DNA from: Callorhinchus milii
Lineage: Eukaryota
Direction of reading: 5' to 3'
DNA: 64,000 bases
NCBI RefSeq assembly: GCF_018977255.1
Contig: NW_024704742.1
Location: 13,146,001-13,210,000 of the forward strand
Part shown: in pieces, positions 4,096 to 63,125 of the stretch
Layout of the letters: every line of letters begins with the position of its first letter
Numbering within the stretch: position 1 is the first letter of the stretch
Made by a program: the position numbers and the translations under genes
Notes under the pieces: model-generated
What the model was told of the DNA's origin: nothing
The model's input: the letters and a program-made list of their open reading frames with translations, nothing else
Database searches by the model: none

Positions 4096-5521
4096 CTACA
4101 GATAGCAGAGAAAGGTAAGCACCACTTTCAGGTGCTAAAATACTTTTCTCTACAGATTGCCTGTGTCCTTCGATTCTCAAGAAGTAAGTTTACTTGTACT
4201 TTTTATTGCAATTAAACTATTATTGGTGTTATTGATGCGGGAGTTTAATTCTAAACTTGTTCCTCTCACCTTAAGCAAATATCCATCAAACAACATACAC
4301 ATGAAATGTTAAAAATTCCCTGTACCTTTGAGCTCCATCTGATCTCCAGCTACTGGAAACATTGGACAGATTTATTTGCTAAAACTACAATTGCTGTTCA
4401 TATAAAATCTTACAAATCACAGTGGGGCCAGCTGTACCAAGCAAGTGTTTCAAGTTCATATCCACCGACCCACCTCTGTGAAAAATGCAGCAGATTGTAA
4501 CTAAAAAGATGGGTTTATTGTGCAATGGCTGGATCTGTCATCACAGAACCACAATTTTACATTCAACCCATCCTGACAAGTGGATCTTTAGTCTTTAGAT
4601 CTTTAGTCTGACTCCAGTATTCTCTCCAACAGTGCTCTTGCCTCATCACTTGTGCTGAGATAGGGTTTCACAGTGACCAAGTGTAACCCATTGAGTATCA
4701 CAGCTACACCCTATCCTCACAGACATCATTCCAGCCGGGATTGTGATCAGAAGGAACTTAAACTGACAATTCACTTTTCCTTTGCCTTTGGGGGGATGGT
4801 TGTTGAGGAAGGAAATGGGACTGAAGCTACGATCACATCTCCAATGTCACCCTGGTTGAGATCAGCTAGTACAGCACAGATGTGGGACTTTCACTGTATG
4901 TGTGGCTCAGTTACACACGGGCAAACTCTTCACCAACTTAACCTGATTATTTGATGGAATGGTTTAAGTTTGAATATCTTTTCCGGGCAGAGAGATTTGG
5001 GCCAGTCTTGTCCAGTGCAATTGTACAACCACAATGTGCTGGAGCAATCATACCGGTTTCTTGTTTAGCAAATGTCAATGAAGGGAGCAGCGCGCTGTAA
5101 TTAAAATCATTAACACTTCAGCAATCAGGTGTCCAGAACTCCCCTTGAACAAGCCATGGTGAAAATATTTTTTTAGCTGAGAGTTTTGGTTTGCAGTATT
5201 GATTTTAATAACGCCCCATTTAGTGGGGTTAAGACCAGCATTTCAGAATTGGAACTCTTTGAGGTGAGACCGGGTTAGCCAGCAATGCATTTGGATCAGC
5301 AAGGATCCTGGATTTGTTATTAAGAACTAATAAACAATGACTGTGAGAAAGGAACGAATGCCATTCTTGGGAAAATGAGAAACAGTCCTATTGTACAGCA
5401 CCTTGCTTAAGCGACTGAAGCTCCCTAGATAAACAATTCACAGTACATCAAACAAGCTGAAATGGCCAATCCTTAGCGCCAAGGGAAGGCACGGGGCCGC
5501 TTATAAATTAATAGGCCTTAC

Positions 5522-6075
5522 CTCAGTATTACTGTTGTCCTGTTCACGGATGTTGTGTAAGTTGCTCCGTAGCCTGCTCCTCGTCCATACCTGTGGTCCC
5601 CACAGCACAGAATGATCAGAAAGGCACGTCTGAACGACTTGTTCAAGAAAGCATATAGAAAGGGGTTCAACCCTGAGTTAATGTATCCCAGCCAGAGGCA
5701 AGCGTTCCACAGCTGCATTGGTGTACTGTATTCGATGAAGGGGTCAACGATGTTGGTGATAAAAAAAGGTGCCCAGCAGAGACAAAAACATCCCATGATA
5801 ATGCCCAGTGTCTTTGCTGCTTTGGTTTCCCTTTTCATCACACTGGAGCCCTGGTGTTCAGTGCTGTCGGTATCTGTGGCAGCTCCTGCCCGCTGCAGAT
5901 TCCCTATACGTCGGGCGTGCTCCATCGCGGTGACGTATATCCTCTGGTAAGCCAGCACCATGAGGATTAGGGGAATGTAGAATGCCACGGCTGAGCATGT
6001 GATGGCGTATGTTTTGTTCACCATAAATACACAGTACGTTTCATTTATGGCTCGGTTGAATTTCCTTTCCTCTAT
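5522..6075 (-). CDS. HTR4: 5-HT4 receptor coding exon (ECL2, TM5-TM7, proximal C-tail), 554 nt, phase 0 to 2
   Basis: Translates [35 protein letters not shown]...[29 protein letters not shown]...[31 protein letters not shown]...VIL(R), closely matching vertebrate 5-HT4. Acceptor tttcctgtttcgcag, donor AG|GTAAGG. Confidence 0.96.
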
Positions 6076-9495: not shown

Positions 9496-9649
9496 AGTCT
9501 CCGTAATTCCAATGGTGTTCCAGCCTTGCAGGATAGGAAGAAAAGATATAAAGCATGGAATTACCCAGCATCCACCCAGCATAAGAGCCACTCGCCAGGG
9601 AGTCATCTTGTTCCTGTAGACCAAGGGTTTGCAACAAATTGCATAATAT
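9496..9649 (-). CDS. HTR4: 5-HT4 receptor coding exon (ICL2-TM4), 154 nt, phase 2 to 0
   Basis: (R)[51 protein letters not shown]. Acceptor ttttcag, donor ACT|GTGAGT. Completes the DRY motif across the junction. Confidence 0.96.
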
Positions 9650-11720
9650 CTGAAAATAAATGAACAAAGAAGCTATCGCAGGTTGTTGAGGATCAAGTGC
9701 CGAAGACAACTTCCCAAGATATTACTGGGTGGTTTTGGTAAATGCTTCTCTGTGGGCTACAATAAGTGACAGGAAACAAACCAGGAAATTGGGGTTGAAG
9801 GACTGAGCATGTTACAGGAATTCTGTAGTGTTATTTGAGACCATAATTTACAACATCATTATAAAATTATTCACTTTTTAAAAAAATTATTTTGCAGCAA
9901 AACACTCAGACTGGACTCAAAGTTAGCAGAGAAGGAAACAGGTTTGTTAGCGACAAGTCCTTACCCATAGTTTATCTTGATACGCATTTCCCTCTCCTCA
10001 AATATCCCTCCTCCTTGCCCAAGACAGACATTCAGGATAGAGTACAGTGTCATACTTCTCAGCAGTGTCTTGCCCAAGTCATCATCCTTCATGTATGAGC
10101 CCAAGCAGTAAATGCCAGTGGGTGATTCAACTGTGACAGGGCAAGGTCATTCCAGCAGACCCCAATCCTATCCTCACCAGGAACTGACATTGCTCATGGG
10201 CTTCGCCTTGAGGCCATTGTCTTAAAATTGAAGGTGGTGCCAGACGAATTTTGAAATATTCCTTAATTCAGTCTTGGTTTGGAAGCCGCAGTCCACAAAA
10301 CACTTCCAAATTAAGCATGACTTTAAGAATTTTCCAAAATTCTGCATCACAATCAATTTAAAGACAATTGGCTAAAACCATGAGAAATATTGAGCCTCTG
10401 AGGTCCACACACACTGTCCACAAGATAATGATAAAGAGCAGTAAAGGTGTTGATTTATTTCTCTCTAGCCAAGGCACTGTGGTGTCAATTATAGTGCATC
10501 ACCTTCCTCCTCCCCCCTGAGAATGACCACTTCAGCAACAGACCAAAGATACAACTTGTGATCTGGTTTGTAAGGTTCAGTAATATACCAAACAATACAT
10601 TTATACACTGGGCCTTCGGAGAGACACGTGTGTTCCTTTCATTCTTTTCTTAATAACTTCCTATTTAGAGTTTTTTTCTGAGCCTTCCTGACCCTCATTT
10701 TATTTAATGATTACTACTAGTTACTAGTTAAGACTAACCTTAACCTTAGGGTCACTGATAGATTGAGGGGAGAAAGAGCATGAGAATGGAATAAAAATAG
10801 GTAGTTCCAGTTAACACTAGCGAGGATGATTTCCTGCTGTGCTGTCACCTTTCCATGATTCAATGTTAATAGCAGTCCTGGAAAAGGTGACTGTATAAGA
10901 TGTTCTTTGAAGGTATAATCTGAAAAAGGAAAGTAAATACTTAAGAGTAGCGGCTGAAATTATTTTTATCTAAAAAGAACTGGACAGAAATGCTTTGAGA
11001 TTTTCATTTTTTAATCATTATATAGAACCATTGACAGAGATTTGCTCAAGGAGGTGAAGCTGCGTGATGAGATAACTGGTTCACAGCCTTCCCTTTGGAT
11101 CCCCTTTCCTGTGACCTTTCTGATCATGTGAATGAAGCTGGAACTATAACTGAAATGAGAGTGACAAGACGTTGTGCAATATATGGTATTCTAGCTGAGA
11201 AGAAACTGAACAAGTCTTTAGTATCAGTAACTATCTAATACAACCTCTGTTTTTTCTACCATGTCTGCTTTTAAAATGAGAGTTCTTTAACTCTTTCATA
11301 TTTCATCCTTGCCCACATACGTCTACTCACCCACACACTATTTGCTCGCTCCCTCCCTTCCCTCCCCTCACCCTGACCATTTCCCCCTGCTCGGGTCATG
11401 ACCCAACTATGCAGCGCCTTGGGACGTCCTCCTGACGTGAAAGGCGCTTTATAAATGGAATCTTGTTGTTGTTGTTGTTGTTGCTGGATGAGAGAATAGG
11501 CAGAAAGTTTGCTTTGTATCAATGAGGAATAAATTAACATCACGGTTAATAGTTAGTAATGAGCAGACATGCCAACAAGTTCCAAGACTTATGTAAAATG
11601 CTGTTATTTTTGGTGGTAAGCTTTCACCCTGCAAAAGTCACTCAGTGAGAATTTGTTGAGTCTCCAAAGACAGATCTCATTGTATATTATGTGGAGTGTA
11701 ATGTAATGCACATTACTTAC

Positions 11721-36569: not shown

Positions 36570-37365
36570 TATGCTGACAGCATCACCATCCATGGTTGCA
36601 CACTGCACCTTGCTAAGCCAGTCCGGAACATTAGGGTCTTGTTTGACCCTCAACTATGCTTTCTACCCCACAACTGCGCCATGACCCGCTCTGCCTTCCT
36701 ACACCTCCGCAACGTCACCCGCTCCGACACTGTCTCACACCGCAGGCCACCGAAACCCTCATACACACTTTCATTACACTGAGGCTCGACTATGCAAACT
36801 CACTGCTTGTCGGCCTCCCCAACTCCTCCCTCCACAGGCTGCAGATTATCCAGAACACTGAACCCCGTGTCCTCTCCCGCACTAGGCTCCACGACCCTAT
36901 CACCCCCATCCTTGCCCAACTCCACTGGCTTCCCATCACACAGGGGATACAGTTCAAGATCCTGGTCCTCACCTTCAAAGCCCTCCATGGTCTTGCTTCC
37001 CTCTACGTCTCCAACCTCCTCACCCCCTACCATCCTGTTTGCTCCCTCCGCTCAACGGGCTCCGGCCTGCTTCACATCCCCCACCTTGCTCGCTCCACTA
37101 TCGGCGGGCAGGGCTTCCGCCACTCTGCTCCCACCCGCTGGAACTCCATCCCGCAGTCCCTCCATCTCGCCCCCTCCCTCGCCACCTTCAAGACCCACCT
37201 CAAGACCCTTCTCTTTGACTGTGCTTTCGATTTCGCTGTTTCCCCCCGCTGCCCTCCCCCCTCCCTCACCCTGACCCTCAGCTCGGGTCTGAATGTCCAG
37301 CGCCTTGGGATGTCCTCCTTATGTGAAAGCTGCTTTACAAATGTAATTTTGTTGTTGTTGTTTTG
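36570..37365 (+). mobile_element. L2 LINE 3' fragment
   Basis: RLDYANSLLVGLP...LHWLPITQGIQFKILVLTFKALHGL and (TTG)n tail. Confidence 0.9.
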
Positions 37366-38706
37366 TTGTAGTTGAATGTAACAGCCTGATTCCGCACAAT
37401 AATGCCCTACAAGCAGCCATGAAACATTTTATCTGGGAGATTGATGGCCACGACACCAGAAGAAACTCCCTTCTCTTTTAGACTAGTGCTTGCTTACAAG
37501 ATACTCAACCATTACACTTTACTGTGATATTCTGTAAAGTGCTTGGAGAAGCCCTCCTGCGGTGAAAGGCACTGCATCAAATGGAAGGATTATTATTATC
37601 ATCATTATTATGAGGACTTTAAAATATGAACAGCAATAAGAGATCCTTGTTGTTCAATGAAATCCGATTAATGAAAATAATCTTTTGAAAAACGAGCATT
37701 ATTCTGAGGAGAACATGTAGTGTGCTCTGTACTAAACTGCAGGATATCACGTTTTTCTAAATGAATGAGCAGCAAGCTCCTCTGAAACATTCTTCAGCAA
37801 CTATATGCTTGGCCACCGACTTGCAGATTTGAGTTTTGGCAGAAGCTGAGATAATAATAACAAACCTTGCATTTGCTATAGCATCTCATTACGTCTTTTG
37901 AGATGTCTCAAAAGTATTTCATAGAATATACTGTTAAGGTGAATTGACTGTATATGTTATGGGCGAAACCTGCCACCATTCCAAAATGTGATGCCTTTAG
38001 TCAGTTCTGAAACAGTCCTGGGCATCACATTTCAGGAACAGAGATTTCTGCTCTAGTAGCTCCCATTTTATTAACATTTTACAGTCCATTAAACAAAGCC
38101 AGACTTGACAGTAAGTGCAATGTTATGCAGTGCACAACTTAGCCTTCAGTTGGCTGGACTGCCAGTAGTCACAGAACGTCACACTCGTAAGATCAGCCTT
38201 GACCAAAAATATATAACAGGTAAAGCTTCATGAACGTTGGAGTGATAGTTCATGTGGAGAAACTGTACAATCACAGGAAAACCCCTCATTAAATATCTCG
38301 GTCAGTTTTTTTTAGCATCCACAGATTTATGTTAAATTCAAACAAAGTGGTCATGAGATATGCAGAAAAATGTAGTGGGAACGAGATGTGTGAATCTATA
38401 GTGCTTAGCTGAAGATATGAGCAAGCAAAGGATGATAATGTAGCCCAAAACAATGATTTATCTGGAGCAAAACAGGTTCAAATTTAAAATGGCAGGGTTC
38501 TTTCAAGCAAGCTTAAAGTTGCTTAAACTGGCCTAGCTGCAAATACAATACAATACAACATTACATTTGTAAAGCACCTTTCACATCGGGAGGACGTGCC
38601 AAGGTGCTGAACAGTAAGGGATTAGGACAAGAGTGGGGGGTGGGTTGGGATCAGAGAGGGTGGAGGGCAGATAAGGTTGGAGGATAGCTGAAGGAATGCT
38701 TTTATT

Positions 38707-47759: not shown

Positions 47760-50389
47760 CGAAACTTTCTCCTTACTCCTCCGGAACCTTCCCCTCCTTT
47801 GAACACTTACCCTCTACCAACTCTCCAGGCTTTCCCTCAAAATCCTCCTTTTTTACCGTCCCCCCAAGCTTTCCCCCACCTTCCTCTCGGACATCTCCAC
47901 CCTCCTGTCTTCCCTCTCCCTCTGCTCTGAACACCTCCTAATCTTAGGCGACTTCAATCTCCACTTCACCCCTTCTGCTCTACCTCTGCCGACTTCTCCA
48001 CCCTCCTCTCTTCCCTCAACCTTTCCCTCCTCATCTACTTCCCCACCCATGCCCATGGCCACCCCCTTGACTTGGTGATCACTCGGGGCCTCACTGTCTC
48101 GGACATCACCATTGTCGATAAAGCCATCTCGGATCACCACTTCATCGCCCTCAACACTTCAGTACCCCTTCCCTTTTCTCAACCCTCCACCATCACATAC
48201 CATCCATGGAAAAAAAATTCCTCCCTCTCCCTCTCCACTGCCCTGGAATCATCTGAACTCCTACACTTCTGGCCCTCACTGACCGATCTCCCCTCCTCAC
48301 TCTCCTTTCTCCACAACTCCCTCTCTTCCATTCTGGACTTCCTTGCCCCTCACCTCCCTAACTGCCTCATACTCCCGTAAATCCCTGTGGTACACCAGCC
48401 ATATCCGTTCCCTCAAGGCACAAGTGTGAGCTGCCGAACTCGCCTGGAACAAATTCAAACTAATGGTCCATCGGCAGATTTGGCTTCATCATACCAAGAC
48501 CTACCGCTGCGCTCTTGCCTCCCCCAAATCCTCCTTCTACTCCAAGGTTATCTTGGAGGCAAAGGACAACCCCAGGCTTCTCTTTTCCACCATAAACTAT
48601 CTCCTCCATCCACCTTCCCACACCTCGCCCATCTTCTCCTCCAACTCCAACTGTGAGGAGATGCTGGACTTCCTCAAATCTAAAATCGAGGGGAAACATT
48701 CAGCCACCTCAGCTCCGTCCACAGCCACCCCCACATCACCTCTCCCTCATGACCCACCCCCCACCCCTATACTCCTTCGACCTTATCCCTCCCTCCTCCC
48801 TCACCACGACTGTCAAACCCACCACCTGTTCCCTCGATCCCATCTCCACCTCTCTCCTCATCTCCCAGCTCCACCTTCTGCCCCCTCTCCTGTCCAATGT
48901 CATCAACCTCTCCTTGTTCACCGATTCAGTTCCCACCCCCCTAAAAACAGCCATCATCACCCCCATCTTGAGAAAACTTCCTTGGACCCATCCCTTCTCT
49001 CCAGTTACTGCCCCATCTCTAACCTCCCATTCCTCTCCAAGGTCCTGGAACAAGTCATCGTGTCCCAGCTCCGCTCCTTTCTTTCTCGCCATTCCCTCTT
49101 TGAACCCCTCCAATCCGGCTTCCGCTCTGCCCACAGCACGGAAACAGCCCTGGTCAAAGTCACTAATGACATTCTGAACATCTGTGATCAGGGCTCCCTC
49201 TGACTCCTTGTCCTCCTCGACCTCTCTGTCGCCTTCGACACTGTCGACCACTCCATCCTCATACACTGCCTCTCCTCCTTATTCAATCTTCACGGACCTG
49301 CCCTTGCCTGGTTCGATTCCTATCTCTCTCACCGTCTCCACTTTGTTGCCTCTTACGGTTTCTCCTCCAGCCCCCGCACTGTCACGTCTGGCGTCCCCCA
49401 GGGCTCTGTCCTTGGTCCTCTCCTCTTTAATATCTACATGCTCCCCCTTGGTGACATCATCCGCAGACATGGGGTCAACTTCCACATGTATACGGATGAC
49501 ACCCAACTCTATCTTTCTGTCTCTACCCTCAACTCCAGGACCACTGCTATCCTGACAGACTGTCTGTCGGACATCAAGTCCTGGATGAGGGTAAATTTCC
49601 TACAGTTGAATATGAACAAGACTGAGGCCCTCCTGATTGGCTCACGCCAGCGCCTCTGCACCTCAGGCTCTGGCAGCATCAACCTCCATGGTGGCACACT
49701 TCAACTCACCAAGCCAGTCAGGAACCTCGGTGTCAACCGTCTTTTCTTCCCCACATCCAAGCCATGACCCGCTCTGCCTTCCCTCACCTCCGTAACATCG
49801 CCCGACTCCGCCACTACCTCATCCCTCAGGCCACTGAAATTCTTGTTCATGCCTTCATCACCTCCAGGCTCGACTATGCAAATGCCCTGCTTGTCGGCCT
49901 TCCCAACTCCTCCCTCCACAGGTTGCAGATAATCCAGAACTCTGCAGCCCGTGTCCTCTCCCACACCAAACTTCGTGACCCCATCTCCCCCATTCTCGCC
50001 CGACTCCATTGGCTCCCTATCCTTCAGAGGATCCAGTTCAAGATCCTGGTCCTCACATACAAAGCCCTCCATGGCCTCGCCCCACCCTACCTCTGCGACT
50101 TCATAACCCCCTACCAACTCGCCGCTCAGCCGGCTCCGGCCTGCTCTACGTCGCCCGAACCACCCGCCCCACCATTGGTGGGAGAGCCTTCAAGCACTCT
50201 GCCCCAACCTCTGGAATTCCATCCCCCAGTCACTCCGCCTCACCCCCTCCTTAGCCTCCTTCAAGTCCCGCCTCAAGACCCTCCTTTCGACCATGCCTTT
50301 GGTCACCCCCCTTCCCCTCCCCTGACCCCAGCTCGGGTCTGAAATGCTGTACTCTGTCCAGCGCCTTGGGACGTCCTCCCGACATGAAA
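47760..50389 (+). mobile_element. L2-clade LINE, 5'-truncated, about 2.6 kb, decayed ORF2 (APE endonuclease plus RT)
   Basis: Motifs [90 protein letters not shown] across frameshifts and stops. Ends in an L2-type 3' stem CAGCGCCTTGGGACGTCCTCCCGAC. Confidence 0.93.
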
Positions 50390-55319: not shown

Positions 55320-55556
55320 AGACTTGTGCAAAATAAATGAGACATTTCCAGGTGGAAAAGGAGATTGTTTAATGATCAGCAGTAATTTAAATCTGAACCT
55401 ATTTTTCTATTTTAGTAAACGTGCCATGACTTGAAATTTTACATACCTGTTTGTAACCATTAACATCCGGAGAAATTCCTGTCTCAGATACCGCCTCAGG
55501 GCGAGTCAAGGATTGTTGCTTTATAAATGCAATGACTGAAGAGAGAGGAGTCAGAA
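55320..55556 (+). promoter_or_regulatory. CXCL8 proximal promoter: NF-kB-like site, TATA box, C/EBP-like and NFAT-like sites
   Basis: GGAGAAATTCC at 55469-55479 (reverse GGAATTTCTCC), TATAAAT at 55522-55528 about 90 nt upstream of the ATG, TTGTGCAA at 55324-55331, TTTCCA/TGGAAAA at about 55345-55359. Confidence 0.65.
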
Positions 55557-55617: not shown

Positions 55618-55681
55618 ATGAACAGCAAAGTCACTATCACCATCCTCGCTTTTCTTATACTTTATGTGACTTCTACACAAG
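55618..55681 (+). CDS. CXCL8: CXC chemokine (IL-8/CXCL8-type) exon 1, signal peptide, 64 nt
   Basis: MNSKVTITILAFLILYVTSTQ(G), a hydrophobic signal peptide resembling cartilaginous-fish IL-8. Phase-1 donor G|GTAAAA. Confidence 0.92.
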
Positions 55682-56593
55682 GTAAAAATTAACCCAAGTC
55701 TATTAAACTGTACAGGAAGTATACAGAATTAGACTAGAATTATAATTATATTGGCAATCCAAATATATATTATAGTTAATATAGAATTAAAAATGCAATA
55801 TACTGTTCAAATGTAGATGTCTTAAAACAAGCAATATTAATTGAGACACTATAGGAGAAATTGTCACATTTTATTCTGAGCAGAACTATGGTTTCCTGGT
55901 GAATGATGTAACAGATAACAGGAAATACAGAATAATGGATTGTATGTGAAAAAGATATATGAAAGCCAGAAGTGCACTGGGCTAGCCCATGCTGTGGGCT
56001 CATCCACACACATGTACACAAGTCCAACTAATATGGAACATAATGAACCCCATCATCTAATTATTGAAATCTATCAGCATTGTTTTAAACCAAAACACCT
56101 GCCATGTAAGGGGAATAATAGCAGATTGACCTTCAAGGTCTTGATGAATTAAGTAATACCAAGCAATGGTTCTCTGCTTATGCACCACAGAAACAGGAAG
56201 ATCCCAGCTGGAGCAAGATTTACTTTATTTCCGCAGCATTTTAGAGCACCCATTACTTGGCAAATTGTTGAATTCAGTTTTAACTTTCTGTAGTTCACAA
56301 AAGAACTTACAGAAAATGGGCTCAAAATCAAGGTTGTATTTACAACACATATTTGCTAAATCCTTGGTACTCTGAATAGCTACGTAAATAGAGTAAATCT
56401 CAACCTAAATGGGATTTCTCCCCACACATCTCTGCTGGCAATTTTCTCCACTTGACTTGTGAAGGCGACTGAAAGAACAAAGTAACAAATGGAATTTCAG
56501 TCCCAATAGATAAATGTACATGAGGAAAAGGGAGAGATTGGTTAAAACAAATTGAAGCAAAGATTAAGGTTTTGTAATTTGTTCACTTTGTAG

Positions 56594-56729
56594 GTGCATC
56601 TCTCAGAGGAAAAGGAGCAAATCTGCAATGCCAATGCATCAAACCATCCTCTGATTTCATCCGCCCAACTCGCATGAAGGAAATTGATATCATTCCAAGT
56701 GGTCCTCACTGCGGAAACGTAGAAATCAT
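56594..56729 (+). CDS. CXCL8: CXCL8-type exon 2, 136 nt (CXC motif, GPH-C); canonical donor GT missing
   Basis: (G)ASLRGKGANLQCQCIKPSSDFIRPTRMKEIDIIPSGPHCGNVEI(I). Acceptor ttcactttgtag. The 3' end reads ATCAT|AAGTA instead of ATCAT|GTAAGTA. Confidence 0.93.
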
Positions 56730-57240
56730 AAGTATTGAATAATAATCCTTGCATTTGTTATAGAGCATTATTACTTCAAAATGTCGCAAAGACCTTCTCA
56801 GGGTGACTGTACAATGTAAGAATTCTACATTTGCAGGAAATACGGCAGCCAATTGGCTTACAGCAATGCCCCATAGTTACCAAGTGAATGACCATTTTTT
56901 TTCTCTGGGGGATTGTTGATCAGGACCCTGGGAGAAACATGCTTCTCTTTTTGAATAGTATCATGGGATCTTTAAGCAGATGTTCCATCTCATCGAAAAA
57001 AAGTGACTATTTGCCTATTTGCAAGGATCGTGTTCTGTTGAATAAGAGTAGAAAGCTTTGTAAATATTTTCAGTAGAACTTCAATCCATTTTACAATGAG
57101 GTTTGATAATAATAATCTATGCATTTGATTATCACGTTGTTGAGACGTCTCAAAGTGCTTCACAGGATATACTGTAAAATGGATTAACTGTGTATTTTGT
57201 TGATTGACAATCTGACATAACTCTTGTTCTCTTCTTTTAG

Positions 57241-57324
57241 TGTCACCCTTACAAATACAAAACAAGTCTGTCTGCACCCTAAAGCACCCTGGGTACAAAG
57301 AATCATTAACAAGATAACGAATAG
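57241..57324 (+). CDS. CXCL8: CXCL8-type exon 3, 84 nt (fourth Cys, C-terminal helix)
   Basis: VTLTNTKQVCLHPKAPWVQRIINKITN(S), the chemokine VCLxPxAPWV motif. Strong acceptor and AG|GTAAGT donor, phase 2 to 2. Confidence 0.93.
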
Positions 57325-57820: not shown

Positions 57821-57860
57821 TTCCAAGACTCACAAAGCTGAGGAACAAGCTAATGTCTGA
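57821..57860 (+). CDS. CXCL8: CXCL8-type exon 4, coding part: (S)SKTHKAEEQANV*
   Basis: Acceptor actttttattaattctacag, phase 2, stop TGA at 57858-57860. Gives a 324-nt CDS (107 aa) with the 64/136/84/short exon layout typical of CXCL8. Confidence 0.75.
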
Positions 57861-58279: not shown

Positions 58280-58640
58280 CTTTTTATTTTTGCATGAATG
58301 ATGTATTATAAATATTAATATTTATTGTTGTGTCTCTGACTCTTATTGTAAGTTATTTGACTTTATTTCATTTTGAGTTTATTCCAAATTGTCTATAGGC
58401 TCATAAAATGTGCTATTCCATATATAAATGTTTATTGTAAAAAAAACTGAGCATGAAAACCTGTGTGGATTCCTACAATTCATAATATGTTTCTGAACCA
58501 GAGAGTATTTATTAATTTATTGAGGAATTATTATTATAGGCACTTGTTAATTCTATCTTTTCTATTTTGAGTGTTGAAGCTATCTATTATGGTGAATGAA
58601 ATATTAATATATTAATGAAGACATTTTGAAATGAGTTAGA
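58280..58640 (+). promoter_or_regulatory. AU-rich 3'UTR of the chemokine with ATTTA instability motifs
   Basis: Very AT-rich, with ATTTA at about 58320 and TATTTATTAATTTATT at about 58506-58521. No canonical AATAAA seen. Confidence 0.55.
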
Positions 58641-59024: not shown

Positions 59025-60184
59025 TAACCCTAAAACCTAACCTTCACCCTAACCTTTATCCCAAACCCTAATCCCTCATCCTCACCTAAACCCCTGACCC
59101 CGCACATTCACCTAAACCCAACCCCTCACCTAAACCCCTGACCCCGCACATTCACCTAAACCTCTGACCCCTCACCTGAACCCCTGACCCCTAACCCTCA
59201 CCTAAACCCCTGAACCCTAACCCTCACCTAAACCCCTGACACCGCACCCTCACCTAAACCCGACCCTTCACCCTCACTTAAACCCAACCCTTCACCCTCA
59301 CCTAAACCCCTGAGCCCTCACCTAAACCCCTGACCCCTCACCTGAACGCCTGACACCTCACCTAAACCCCTGACCCCACACCCTCACTTAAACCTTTGAA
59401 CCCTCACCCTCGTCTAAACCCCTGACCCCTCACCTAAACCCCTGACCCCTCACCCTCACCTAAACCCCTGACCCCTCACCCTCACCTAAACCCCTGACCC
59501 CTCACCTAAACCCCTGACCCCTCACTCTCACCTAAACCCCTGATCCCTCACCTGAACCCCTGACCCCTCACCTAAACCCCTGACCCCTCAACTAAACCAC
59601 TGACCTCTCACCCTCACCTAAACCCCTGACACCATCACCTCAACCCCTGACTCCTCACCCTCACCTAAACCCCTCACACTCACCTAAACCCCTGACCCCT
59701 CACCTCAACCCCTGACCCAACTAAACCCGTGATCCCTCACCCTCACCTAAATCCCTGACCCCTCACCCTCGCCTAAAGCACTGAGCCCTCACCCTCACCT
59801 AAGCCCCTGACTCCCTCACCTAACCCCTTGACCCATCACCTAAACCTCCGACCCCTCACCCTCACCTAAAGCCCTCACCCTCACCTAAACCCCTGACCCC
59901 TCACCTAAACCCCTGACCCCTCACCTAAACCCCCGACCCCTCACCCTCACCTAAAGCCCTCACCCTCACCTAAAGCCCTCACCCTCACCTAAACCCCTGA
60001 CCCCTCACCTAAACCCCTGACCCCTCACCTAAACCCCTGACCCCTCACCTAAACCCGACCCCTCACCTAAACCCTTGATCCCGCACCTAAATCCGACCCC
60101 TCACGTGAACCCAACCCCTCACCTGAACCTCTGACCCTCACCTAAACCCCTGACCCCTCAACTAAACCCGTGACCTCTCACCTC
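59025..60184 (+). repeat. Telomere-variant minisatellite, about 1.15 kb, core 20-mer CCCCTCACCTAAACCCCTGA with optional extra CCCTCA
   Basis: Directly visible. Begins with CCCTAA-type units and continues as CCCTCA/CCTAAA/CCCCTGA variants. Confidence 0.95.
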
Positions 60185-62111: not shown

Positions 62112-62659
62112 ATATTTTTGTTGCATTTTTTGCCGTTTTTGTATGTTAACATTTGTTTAGATTTTTCACGTACTTTCTGTTCATTTTTTCACGTATATTC
62201 TGTGAAGGGCACCCAGGTCACATGACCCAGCCCAATTCACGTGACCCAACCCAGGTCACACGACTATGCCCCACGTCACTTGACTACACCTCGGTCACTT
62301 GAGCACACACTCGGGTCACCTGACTGCATTCCGAGATCACGCCACTACATCCAGGATCATGTGGCATTGCACCCAGATCACGTGACCCGTTCCAGGACGC
62401 ATGGTCCCACCCAGGTCATATCCCCACATCACCTGACTGCGCCCATGTCACATGAACCCGCCCCAGGCTAGATGTGCCATTCCAAGGTGCTAGCGCTAAA
62501 CTCTATCCTAACCTTAACCCCTGACGCCTAACCCTTACCTCAATAGTTTCACTCGACATCTTTACAGGAATTCCATGAAACCCTATTTTGGCGCATATTT
62601 ATGGAAAAATCGTATTAAATCTGATCACTCCACATTTGTACCTTAAACCACTTGAATCC

Positions 62660-63125
62660 CCCCCACTTGCCCAGCTCCACTGGCTGCCCATCCCTCAGAG
62701 AATAGAATTCAAACACCTCTTCCTCACTTTCAAGGCCCTCCACAACCTTGCATCCTCCCGTATCTCTGACCTGCTGACCTCCTATCAATCAGTCCACTCG
62801 CTTAGCAGGCTCCGGCCTGCTCCATGTATCCCGCCCGACCCTCCCTACCATCGGCGGCCAGGCTTTCAGTGGCTCTGCCTCCACACTTTGGAACTGCATC
62901 TCATAATCCCTTTGTCTTGCTCTCTCTTCATGCCAACTTCAAGGCATGACTCAAGACCCTCCTTTTCGACTGTGCTTCAGCCTCCTTCCTATACCCTCTG
63001 CGCTCCCTCATTCCAACCCTGCCCCCACCCACCCCCATGCTCAGGTCTGATCCCCGACTGTTCAGCGCCTTGGGATGAACTCCCGACGTGAAACCCACAT
63101 GATAAATGTAACTTTGTTGCTGTTG
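62660..63125 (+). mobile_element. L2 3' fragment inserted in the AT-rich satellite
   Basis: LAQLHWLPIPQRIEFK...FKALHNL and L2 tail. Confidence 0.88.

Follow-up and report, generated by a model that had tools for sequence, protein, structure and literature searches.

A CXCL8-like chemokine gene of the elephant shark without a donor GT at exon 2: out-of-frame splicing in a probable young pseudogene

A CXCL8-like CXC chemokine gene of the elephant shark, Callorhinchus milii, has no GT at the ancestral donor of its second exon, and its main message in two RNA-type sequencing runs encodes a frameshifted product of 92 amino acids. We consider it likely that this copy is a recent, common or fixed loss of function, that is, a young pseudogene which is transcribed and escapes nonsense-mediated decay (NMD) in a redundant family.

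Results

Gene layout and the lost donor

The window analysed is a 64-kb stretch of contig NW_024704742.1, and all coordinates given are positions within it. The gene lies on its plus strand in four exons, with GT/AG splice ends at all sites except one. The motif upstream of its TATA box is NF-kB-like only in its resemblance to the consensus. A contig of run X5 (see below) starts at 55544, compatible with the TATA box, bearing in mind that contigs cannot show a transcription start. The features of the gene are as follows.

55470..55479, plus strand: putative NF-kB-like site, 5' of the TATA box (motif scan)
55522..55527, plus strand: TATA box (motif scan)
55618..55681, plus strand: coding part of exon 1, 64 nt; signal peptide by homology; GT donor intact
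56594..56729, plus strand: exon 2 to its ancestral end, 136 nt, the exon length of the family in Dataset S1 of PMC10801876
56594..56731, plus strand: exon 2 as now spliced, 138 nt; AG acceptor at 56594; carries the CXC motif and the third Cys
56730..56731, plus strand: AA in place of the ancestral donor GT, now exonic and giving a +2 shift; same letters in X1 record 2 and X2 record 10
56732..56733, plus strand: GT donor in use, the GT of consensus positions +5/+6; weak
56738..56975, minus strand: old SINE-like repeat in intron 2, its tail adjoining the donor
56740..56742, plus strand: TAA of a 70-aa, three-Cys product, reached by retention of intron 2 or by use of a donor at 56816
56764..56815, plus strand: 52-nt "exon" assigned by the NCBI model XP_007902512.1 and derived from a repeat, followed by the 56816 donor
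57103..57200, minus strand: second repeat fragment of intron 2
57241..57324, plus strand: exon 3, 84 nt, AG/GT; open and native-like in its old frame, translated at present in the shifted one
57265..57266, plus strand: internal AG, whose use with donor 56732 would bring back the frame in a 99-aa product, shorter by 8 residues
57273..57275, plus strand: TGC, read as the fourth Cys after the shift; the ancestral Cys4 codon is 57269-57271
57315..57317, plus strand: TAA of the 92-aa product, 7 nt upstream of the last junction
57821..57860, plus strand: former coding part of exon 4, 40 nt including the ancestral stop; AG acceptor; now 3' untranslated
58319..58519, plus strand: AU-rich motifs with three ATTTA in the 3' UTR, putatively regulatory

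We place the ancestral end of exon 2 at 56729 because only this position gives the 136-nt exon and the 1-2-2 phases that chondrichthyan CXCL8-like genes have in Dataset S1 of PMC10801876. Read in this way, the gene has exons of 64, 136 and 84 nt, phases 1-2-2 and an open frame of 107 amino acids; as spliced at present, intron 2 is of phase 1. The letters after 56729 are AA and the closest GTs are at 56719 and 56732, which agrees with an earlier note on this DNA that had described an exon 2 donor without its GT in a gene whose four exons are otherwise intact. Recomputation also gave the products named there: retention of intron 2 yields 70 amino acids with three Cys, whereas GT 56732 with the acceptor at 57241 yields 92 amino acids with four Cys, 17 residues instead of 15 between the third and the fourth, and a stop 7 nt before the last junction. 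A cut after 56727 would give an out-of-frame product of 79 amino acids.

The letters left at the donor fit consensus positions +3 to +6, which makes the GT now used the one at +5/+6; as a donor it matches 4 of the 9 consensus positions, compared with 6 and 8 at the other donors of the gene and 6 of 9 at 56816. Loss of the original GT through a 2-nt deletion is the simplest history, but insertion of 2 nt before a weaker donor would have yielded the identical sequence. Where the earlier note spoke of a 2-nt deletion, it is thus the missing GT that stands, and the deletion is one of two histories with the same letters.

The repeat in intron 2, presumably a SINE, begins at 56738, 8 nt after 56729, close to the distance of about 10 nt noted before. 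It has many copies within the window, and its long matches to them are 66-79% identical; the only candidate for a target-site duplication is 8 nt long (56735/57038) and within chance. With an old repeat and no convincing duplication, insertion of this element as the cause of the donor loss is not supported. Elsewhere in the window, broken LINE reverse-transcriptase-like frames, which we assume to be of CR1/L2 type, lie at 36647-37372, 47931-50339 and 62579-63088, and a degenerate tandem array with periods of 13-46 nt and telomere-like C-rich units occupies 59066-60183, directly 3' of the UTR of the chemokine gene.

Sequencing runs and the splice form

A run search found 24 runs, 10 of them with the stretch or part of it and none recorded as RNA, and four of the 24 (four samples from three studies) were compared as contigs. 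X1 and X2 are DNA-type; X5 and X8, from two further studies, are called RNA-type by guess, and their contigs skip every intron that they cross precisely at its GT-AG ends. The RNA-type runs X12 and X15-X19, which share next to no words with the stretch, are not among the four and carry no weight as to expression. Record 2 of X1 spans 56258-56970 and record 10 of X2 spans 56258-56767, each with no other letters and no gaps. In the RNA-type runs, record 17 of X5 and record 22 of X8 join 56731 to 57241, again with no other letters, and then exon 3 to exon 4; the junction of exons 1 and 2 is present in X5 record 17. The intron removed in both is the GT-AG intron 56732-57240, and the extra AA lies inside the spliced sequence, so that the reading frame shifts. 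The 92-aa frameshifted product is therefore what the main message encodes in these two runs.

The cryptic GT at 56732, to which the earlier note had drawn attention, is the donor in both RNA-type runs, and the junction check proposed there shows 56731/57241 in the contigs, with normal 56729/57241 splicing absent from them. Its judgement that the site is not of U12 type is borne out by the same GT-AG intron, and on the same ground a frame-restoring AT-AC, U12, GC-AG or AT-AG intron was rejected. In both RNA-type contigs the 52-nt NCBI exon is absent and the internal AG is unused. An assembly error at the donor had also been put forward, and a 2-nt loss adjoining a repeat in an otherwise intact gene would fit one, but it is very unlikely: both DNA-type runs match the window across the donor, and the AA stands within the spliced contigs of both RNA-type runs.

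The GT-less form is the contig path in all four runs and, among the differences listed, there is no insertion at 56729-56731. Taking the four runs as independent single-haplotype draws puts its frequency above about 0.47 at the 5% level, a figure to be read with the fact that contigs collapse alleles and drop rarer alleles and isoforms. Repeat-derived contigs swamp both the donor depth bin and the table of joints (462 further joints), which would mask minor junctions such as 56815-57241 and 56731-57267. The depth of the exon 2 bin lies above that of the spanning contig (4.9 in X1, 1.9 in X2). We considered a second allele as the source of this excess but, there being no difference listed in the bin, read it as probably made up of short matches from other loci.

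Database records and paralogues

Exon 2 matches two C. milii records at 100%, out of seven candidates. UniProt A0A4W3IU83 (92 aa, "interleukin-8-like") is identical, letter for letter, to the frameshifted product. NCBI XP_007902512.1 (125 aa, "interleukin-8-like") takes the GT at 56732, then a 32-nt intron (56732-56763) and the 52-nt repeat exon, by which the model regains the frame. An intron of 32 nt is implausible in vertebrates, and this part of the model (56732-56815) appears to be an annotation artefact. Both records are models of the elephant shark gene, and the name of neither flags a defect. Three protein searches returned no intact product of this copy.

The earlier note had advised a search for intact paralogues nearby. 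Two are encoded on the same 139-Mb contig, XP_007883457.1/XP_042193630.1 and XP_007910295.1. Within the 64-kb window a six-frame pattern search and tblastn with 12 proteins found no second chemokine gene. According to Dataset S1 of PMC10801876, the neighbourhood of jchain, at 80-139 kb of NW_024704742.1, has five cxcl genes; we checked two of their proteins, and in both the WV motif is present and the Cys are normally spaced. A previous count of CXCL8-group genes in the elephant shark was four (PMC3568907). The copy described here lies about 13 Mb after jchain and 2.3 Mb before the tnip3-side cxcl gene, in agreement with the Dataset S1 coordinates, which suggests a lone gene outside both cxcl clusters. 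The earlier note's "null allele of CXCL8" was accordingly right about a loss and overstated in its extent, one dispersed copy being affected while intact paralogues exist. The gene's accession is absent from the supplements of PMC10801876, a term search of the PMC3964593 supplement did not find the gene, and no paper on the donor lesion turned up in the literature searched, which misses most subscription journals.

On the minus strand of the window, about 46-50 kb from the chemokine gene, are exons of a 5-HT4 receptor-like GPCR (5521-6072 and 9502-9651), whose best PDB match is 5-hydroxytryptamine receptor 4 (E 6e-82). An HTR4-like and a CXCL8-like gene this close together may be what is left of an old paralogon.

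The shifted product

Eight shark and ray relatives have 43 invariant columns in common. The ancestral reading agrees with 39 of them; in exon 3 the old frame keeps all seven and the shifted frame none. All 54 chondrichthyan relatives have a Trp after the last Cys motif, and the shifted tail has none. Downstream of the last Cys, the helical hydrophobic moment peaks at 0.80 in the shifted tail; the old frame reaches 2.73, and none of the 51 relatives compared falls below 1.0 (three of the 54 were dropped for other Cys spacing). Both the WV motif and the amphipathic C-terminal helix, by which functional CXC chemokines are recognised, are thus lost from the 92-aa product. In human CXCL8 the helix binds glycosaminoglycans (GAGs), and its removal prevents GAG recruitment and receptor activation (PMC13367824). 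The gap of 17 between the third and fourth Cys compares with 15 in 51 of the 54 chondrichthyan relatives and 14 in the other three; among 145 wider relatives matched it is 14-16 in 140 and 17 in two, and all 145 lie within 14-19. The context of the shifted fourth Cys is unrelated to that of the third-strand Cys4 of relatives.

AlphaFold2, in the structure prediction that the earlier note had called for, modelled the 92-aa product as unfolded, with a pLDDT of 45.8, no third strand and no helix, whereas an intact relative with similar alignment depth reached 67.7 and was given the complete fold; as nothing aligns with the new tail, low confidence there is expected whether or not it folds, and for the tail itself the model weighs little. 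The same holds for Foldseek, in which the 92-aa model had no PDB match at E<=0.001 and the intact control 86. With the Pfam IL8 profile the product scores 25.4 bits (cut-off 21.3), while four intact relatives score 60-63. Its mature part is basic (10 K+R versus 5 D+E). The motif before CXC is NLQ and not ELR, and cartilaginous fish CXCL8 is generally without ELR (PMC6145007).

In the shifted frame the codon of the fourth Cys is made up of the final two bases of one codon, Leu, and the initial base of the next, His, downstream of the old Cys. At the position of this His, 50 of 54 chondrichthyan relatives have Asp or Asn and one, an intact shark chemokine, has His; His occurs there in one of the 145 wider relatives matched (157 examined). 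With the same Leu codon, Asp would yield Trp and Asn a stop in the shifted frame, and the need for a His codon would be the best argument for selection on the fourth Cys. Its presence in an intact shark chemokine suggests, however, that the His may predate the shift.

The shifted frame is open for 24 codons and its Cys lies two residues from the native position. In random back-translations a reachable Cys fell within three residues of the native place in 7-11% of cases for 138 CXC relatives and 11-18% for eight close ones; a nearby Cys together with at least 23 open codons arose in 0.8-1.3% and 1.5-3.6% of simulated shifts, respectively, and Cys plus open frame in 3.5-5.5% of shifts of the gene's own peptide, all of these being figures obtained with guessed codon choice and not real orthologous DNA, for features chosen after the fact. 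None of the 157 relatives examined has the shifted tail, and the ESM Atlas gave no usable match for it, a blank there being uninformative. Nothing in the comparison with relatives points to prolonged selection on the new frame, since the old one has no stop and keeps its seven invariant residues. The idea that a fourth Cys rescues a working variant finds no support in the predicted fold, the helix loss or the chance estimates; the frameshifted four-cysteine product of the earlier note exists as a message, and on the same grounds is probably not a functional variant.

Age and placement of the copy

Exon 3 has no stop in its old frame and retains there the invariant residues and a strong helix. 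With the old frame still open and native-like the shift looks recent, although no other vertebrate compared in PMC3964593 has a neutral rate as low as that of the elephant shark, so that "recent" may still be long. The scores of exon 2 and old-frame exon 3 are low, though still in the intact-gene range, with 5 and 3 of 51, respectively, lying below them; recent loss, mild relaxation or plain lineage distance would each fit. Exon 2 is about 64% identical to the relative panel. The end branch of the gene in our tree, 0.56, is similar to those of other holocephalan rows (0.32-0.48) and inflated by the NCBI insert; the tree leaves the gene unplaced.

At the last position of the xLR motif, occupied by Arg in 51 of 54 chondrichthyan relatives, the gene has Gln. 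As a sign of decay this was weakened by Chimaera phantasma IL-8 (P0201), which shares the Gln before CXC (window 56620-56628); the two may possibly form a holocephalan non-xLR subgroup, a grouping to which the tree gives no support. Old-frame exon 3 is nearer to two ray proteins (P0006 and P0010; 59% and 71%) than to shark ones, and these two share residues just after CXC; the tree does not join the gene with them.

Discussion

The likely course is as follows. The donor GT of intron 2 was lost, most simply by a 2-nt deletion, and the spliceosome takes the next GT, the old +5/+6, which makes exon 2 longer by 2 nt and puts exon 3 into another frame, as the main contigs of the two RNA-type runs show. 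A GT four bases downstream is part of the GTRAGT donor consensus, and its alternative use shifts the frame (PMC1779574). The GT now used in the elephant shark is the same consensus GT with the same kind of effect, but in the donor pairs treated in that paper it is an alternative site, whereas here no primary GT is left, and two missing bases make the shift +2. The donor at 56816, though a better match, would bring in the stop at 56740, which would then lie 73 nt upstream of the junction. Messages with a stop more than 50-55 nt upstream of a junction are, as a general rule, degraded. Such degradation may help the weak 56732 donor to dominate at steady state. The stop of the 92-aa product, only 7 nt before the last junction, should let the message escape NMD, as the earlier note had argued; the stop position and the presence of the message both fit this, and the escape is the probable link between them. 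The product would keep the signal peptide, N-loop, CXC motif, third Cys and about two strands, would be without the third strand, WV motif and C-terminal helix, and, judging from homology and prediction, most likely neither folds nor signals as a chemokine. Its loss would be tolerated as intact paralogues remain, and the fourth Cys would be a by-product of the codons around the old one.

Against a loss of function stand the promoter motifs, signal peptide, exon 2, other splice sites and AU-rich motifs, all intact in a gene that is still transcribed, and the joint rarity (0.8-5.5%) of a long open shifted frame with a nearby Cys in simulated shifts. Alternatively, the gene might encode a re-coded functional variant, its new Cys4 pairing with Cys2 in a secreted, basic, helix-less antagonist, decoy or antimicrobial. 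The use of this splice form as the main one in both RNA-type runs, the even number of Cys, the 1-5% chance of an open frame with a nearby Cys and the excess of basic residues in the mature part are what such a variant would show, and linearised chemokines can keep antimicrobial activity (PMC3531597). J chain came from a CXCL gene via disulfide rewiring (PMC10801876), and by analogy an exon 3 that was re-coded, regained its Cys4 through one base and was selected could represent a living early stage of the same kind of rewiring, an idea that we hold to be no less doubtful than the variant itself. The variant is doubtful, for the old frame is free of stops with all seven invariant residues kept, the His that the new Cys requires is found in an intact shark chemokine (1 of 54), a nearby Cys alone appears in 7-18% of simulated shifts, neither helix nor fold is predicted, and the tail has no relative among the 157 examined.

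The undecayed old frame and regulatory motifs could also be accounted for if the GT-less form were a common null allele and an intact allele persisted in the species, and contigs that collapse alleles, together with repeat depth that swamps the donor bin, could hide such an allele. We think this unlikely, as all four runs, from four samples and three studies, have the GT-less form as contig path, both public protein models were built on it, and the three protein searches brought up no intact product. Selection on the old frame and its helix could instead be maintained by leaky splicing, with donor 56732 joined to the internal AG at 57265-57266 in a minor, in-frame isoform of 99 amino acids with four Cys, WV and helix. 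This is quite unlikely: both RNA-type contigs use 57241, the gap between the third and fourth Cys would be 7, when it is 14-19 in all 145 matched relatives, and the eight old-frame codons that the isoform skips are conserved too.

We thus favour the young pseudogene. Two features of a transcribed duplicated pseudogene are present, a disabling lesion in the genome and in the message and an intact paralogue in the same genome. The CXCL8-like genes of cluster A (PMC10801876; XP_007910295.1, XP_007883457.1) share with the ancestral reading the 64/136/84-nt exons, the phases, the position of CXC and the WV motif; the elephant shark copy differs from them in its location about 13 Mb away, its Gln for the xLR Arg and its out-of-frame splicing. 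Damaged cxcl copies are also recorded for sawfish, thorny skate and little skate in Dataset S1 of PMC10801876, with frameshifts, pseudogenes, shifted stops and a new exon 3 donor, but among the remarks examined none combines loss of the exon 2 donor with a fourth Cys gained in its stead.

For a reference cartilaginous fish, the two public "interleukin-8-like" entries of this gene thus consist of one frameshifted product and one model that depends on an implausible 32-nt intron, and in gene counts, trees and functional work this elephant shark copy should not be treated as an intact CXCL8. It offers a clean natural case of a lost donor rescued by a GT of the same consensus, with probable escape from NMD. 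Were the product to fold and be active, it would be a cytokine whose C-terminal third derives from a frameshift with the disulfide count kept, and such a re-coded variant, if true, would be of interest to studies of chemokines and of the origin of J chain.
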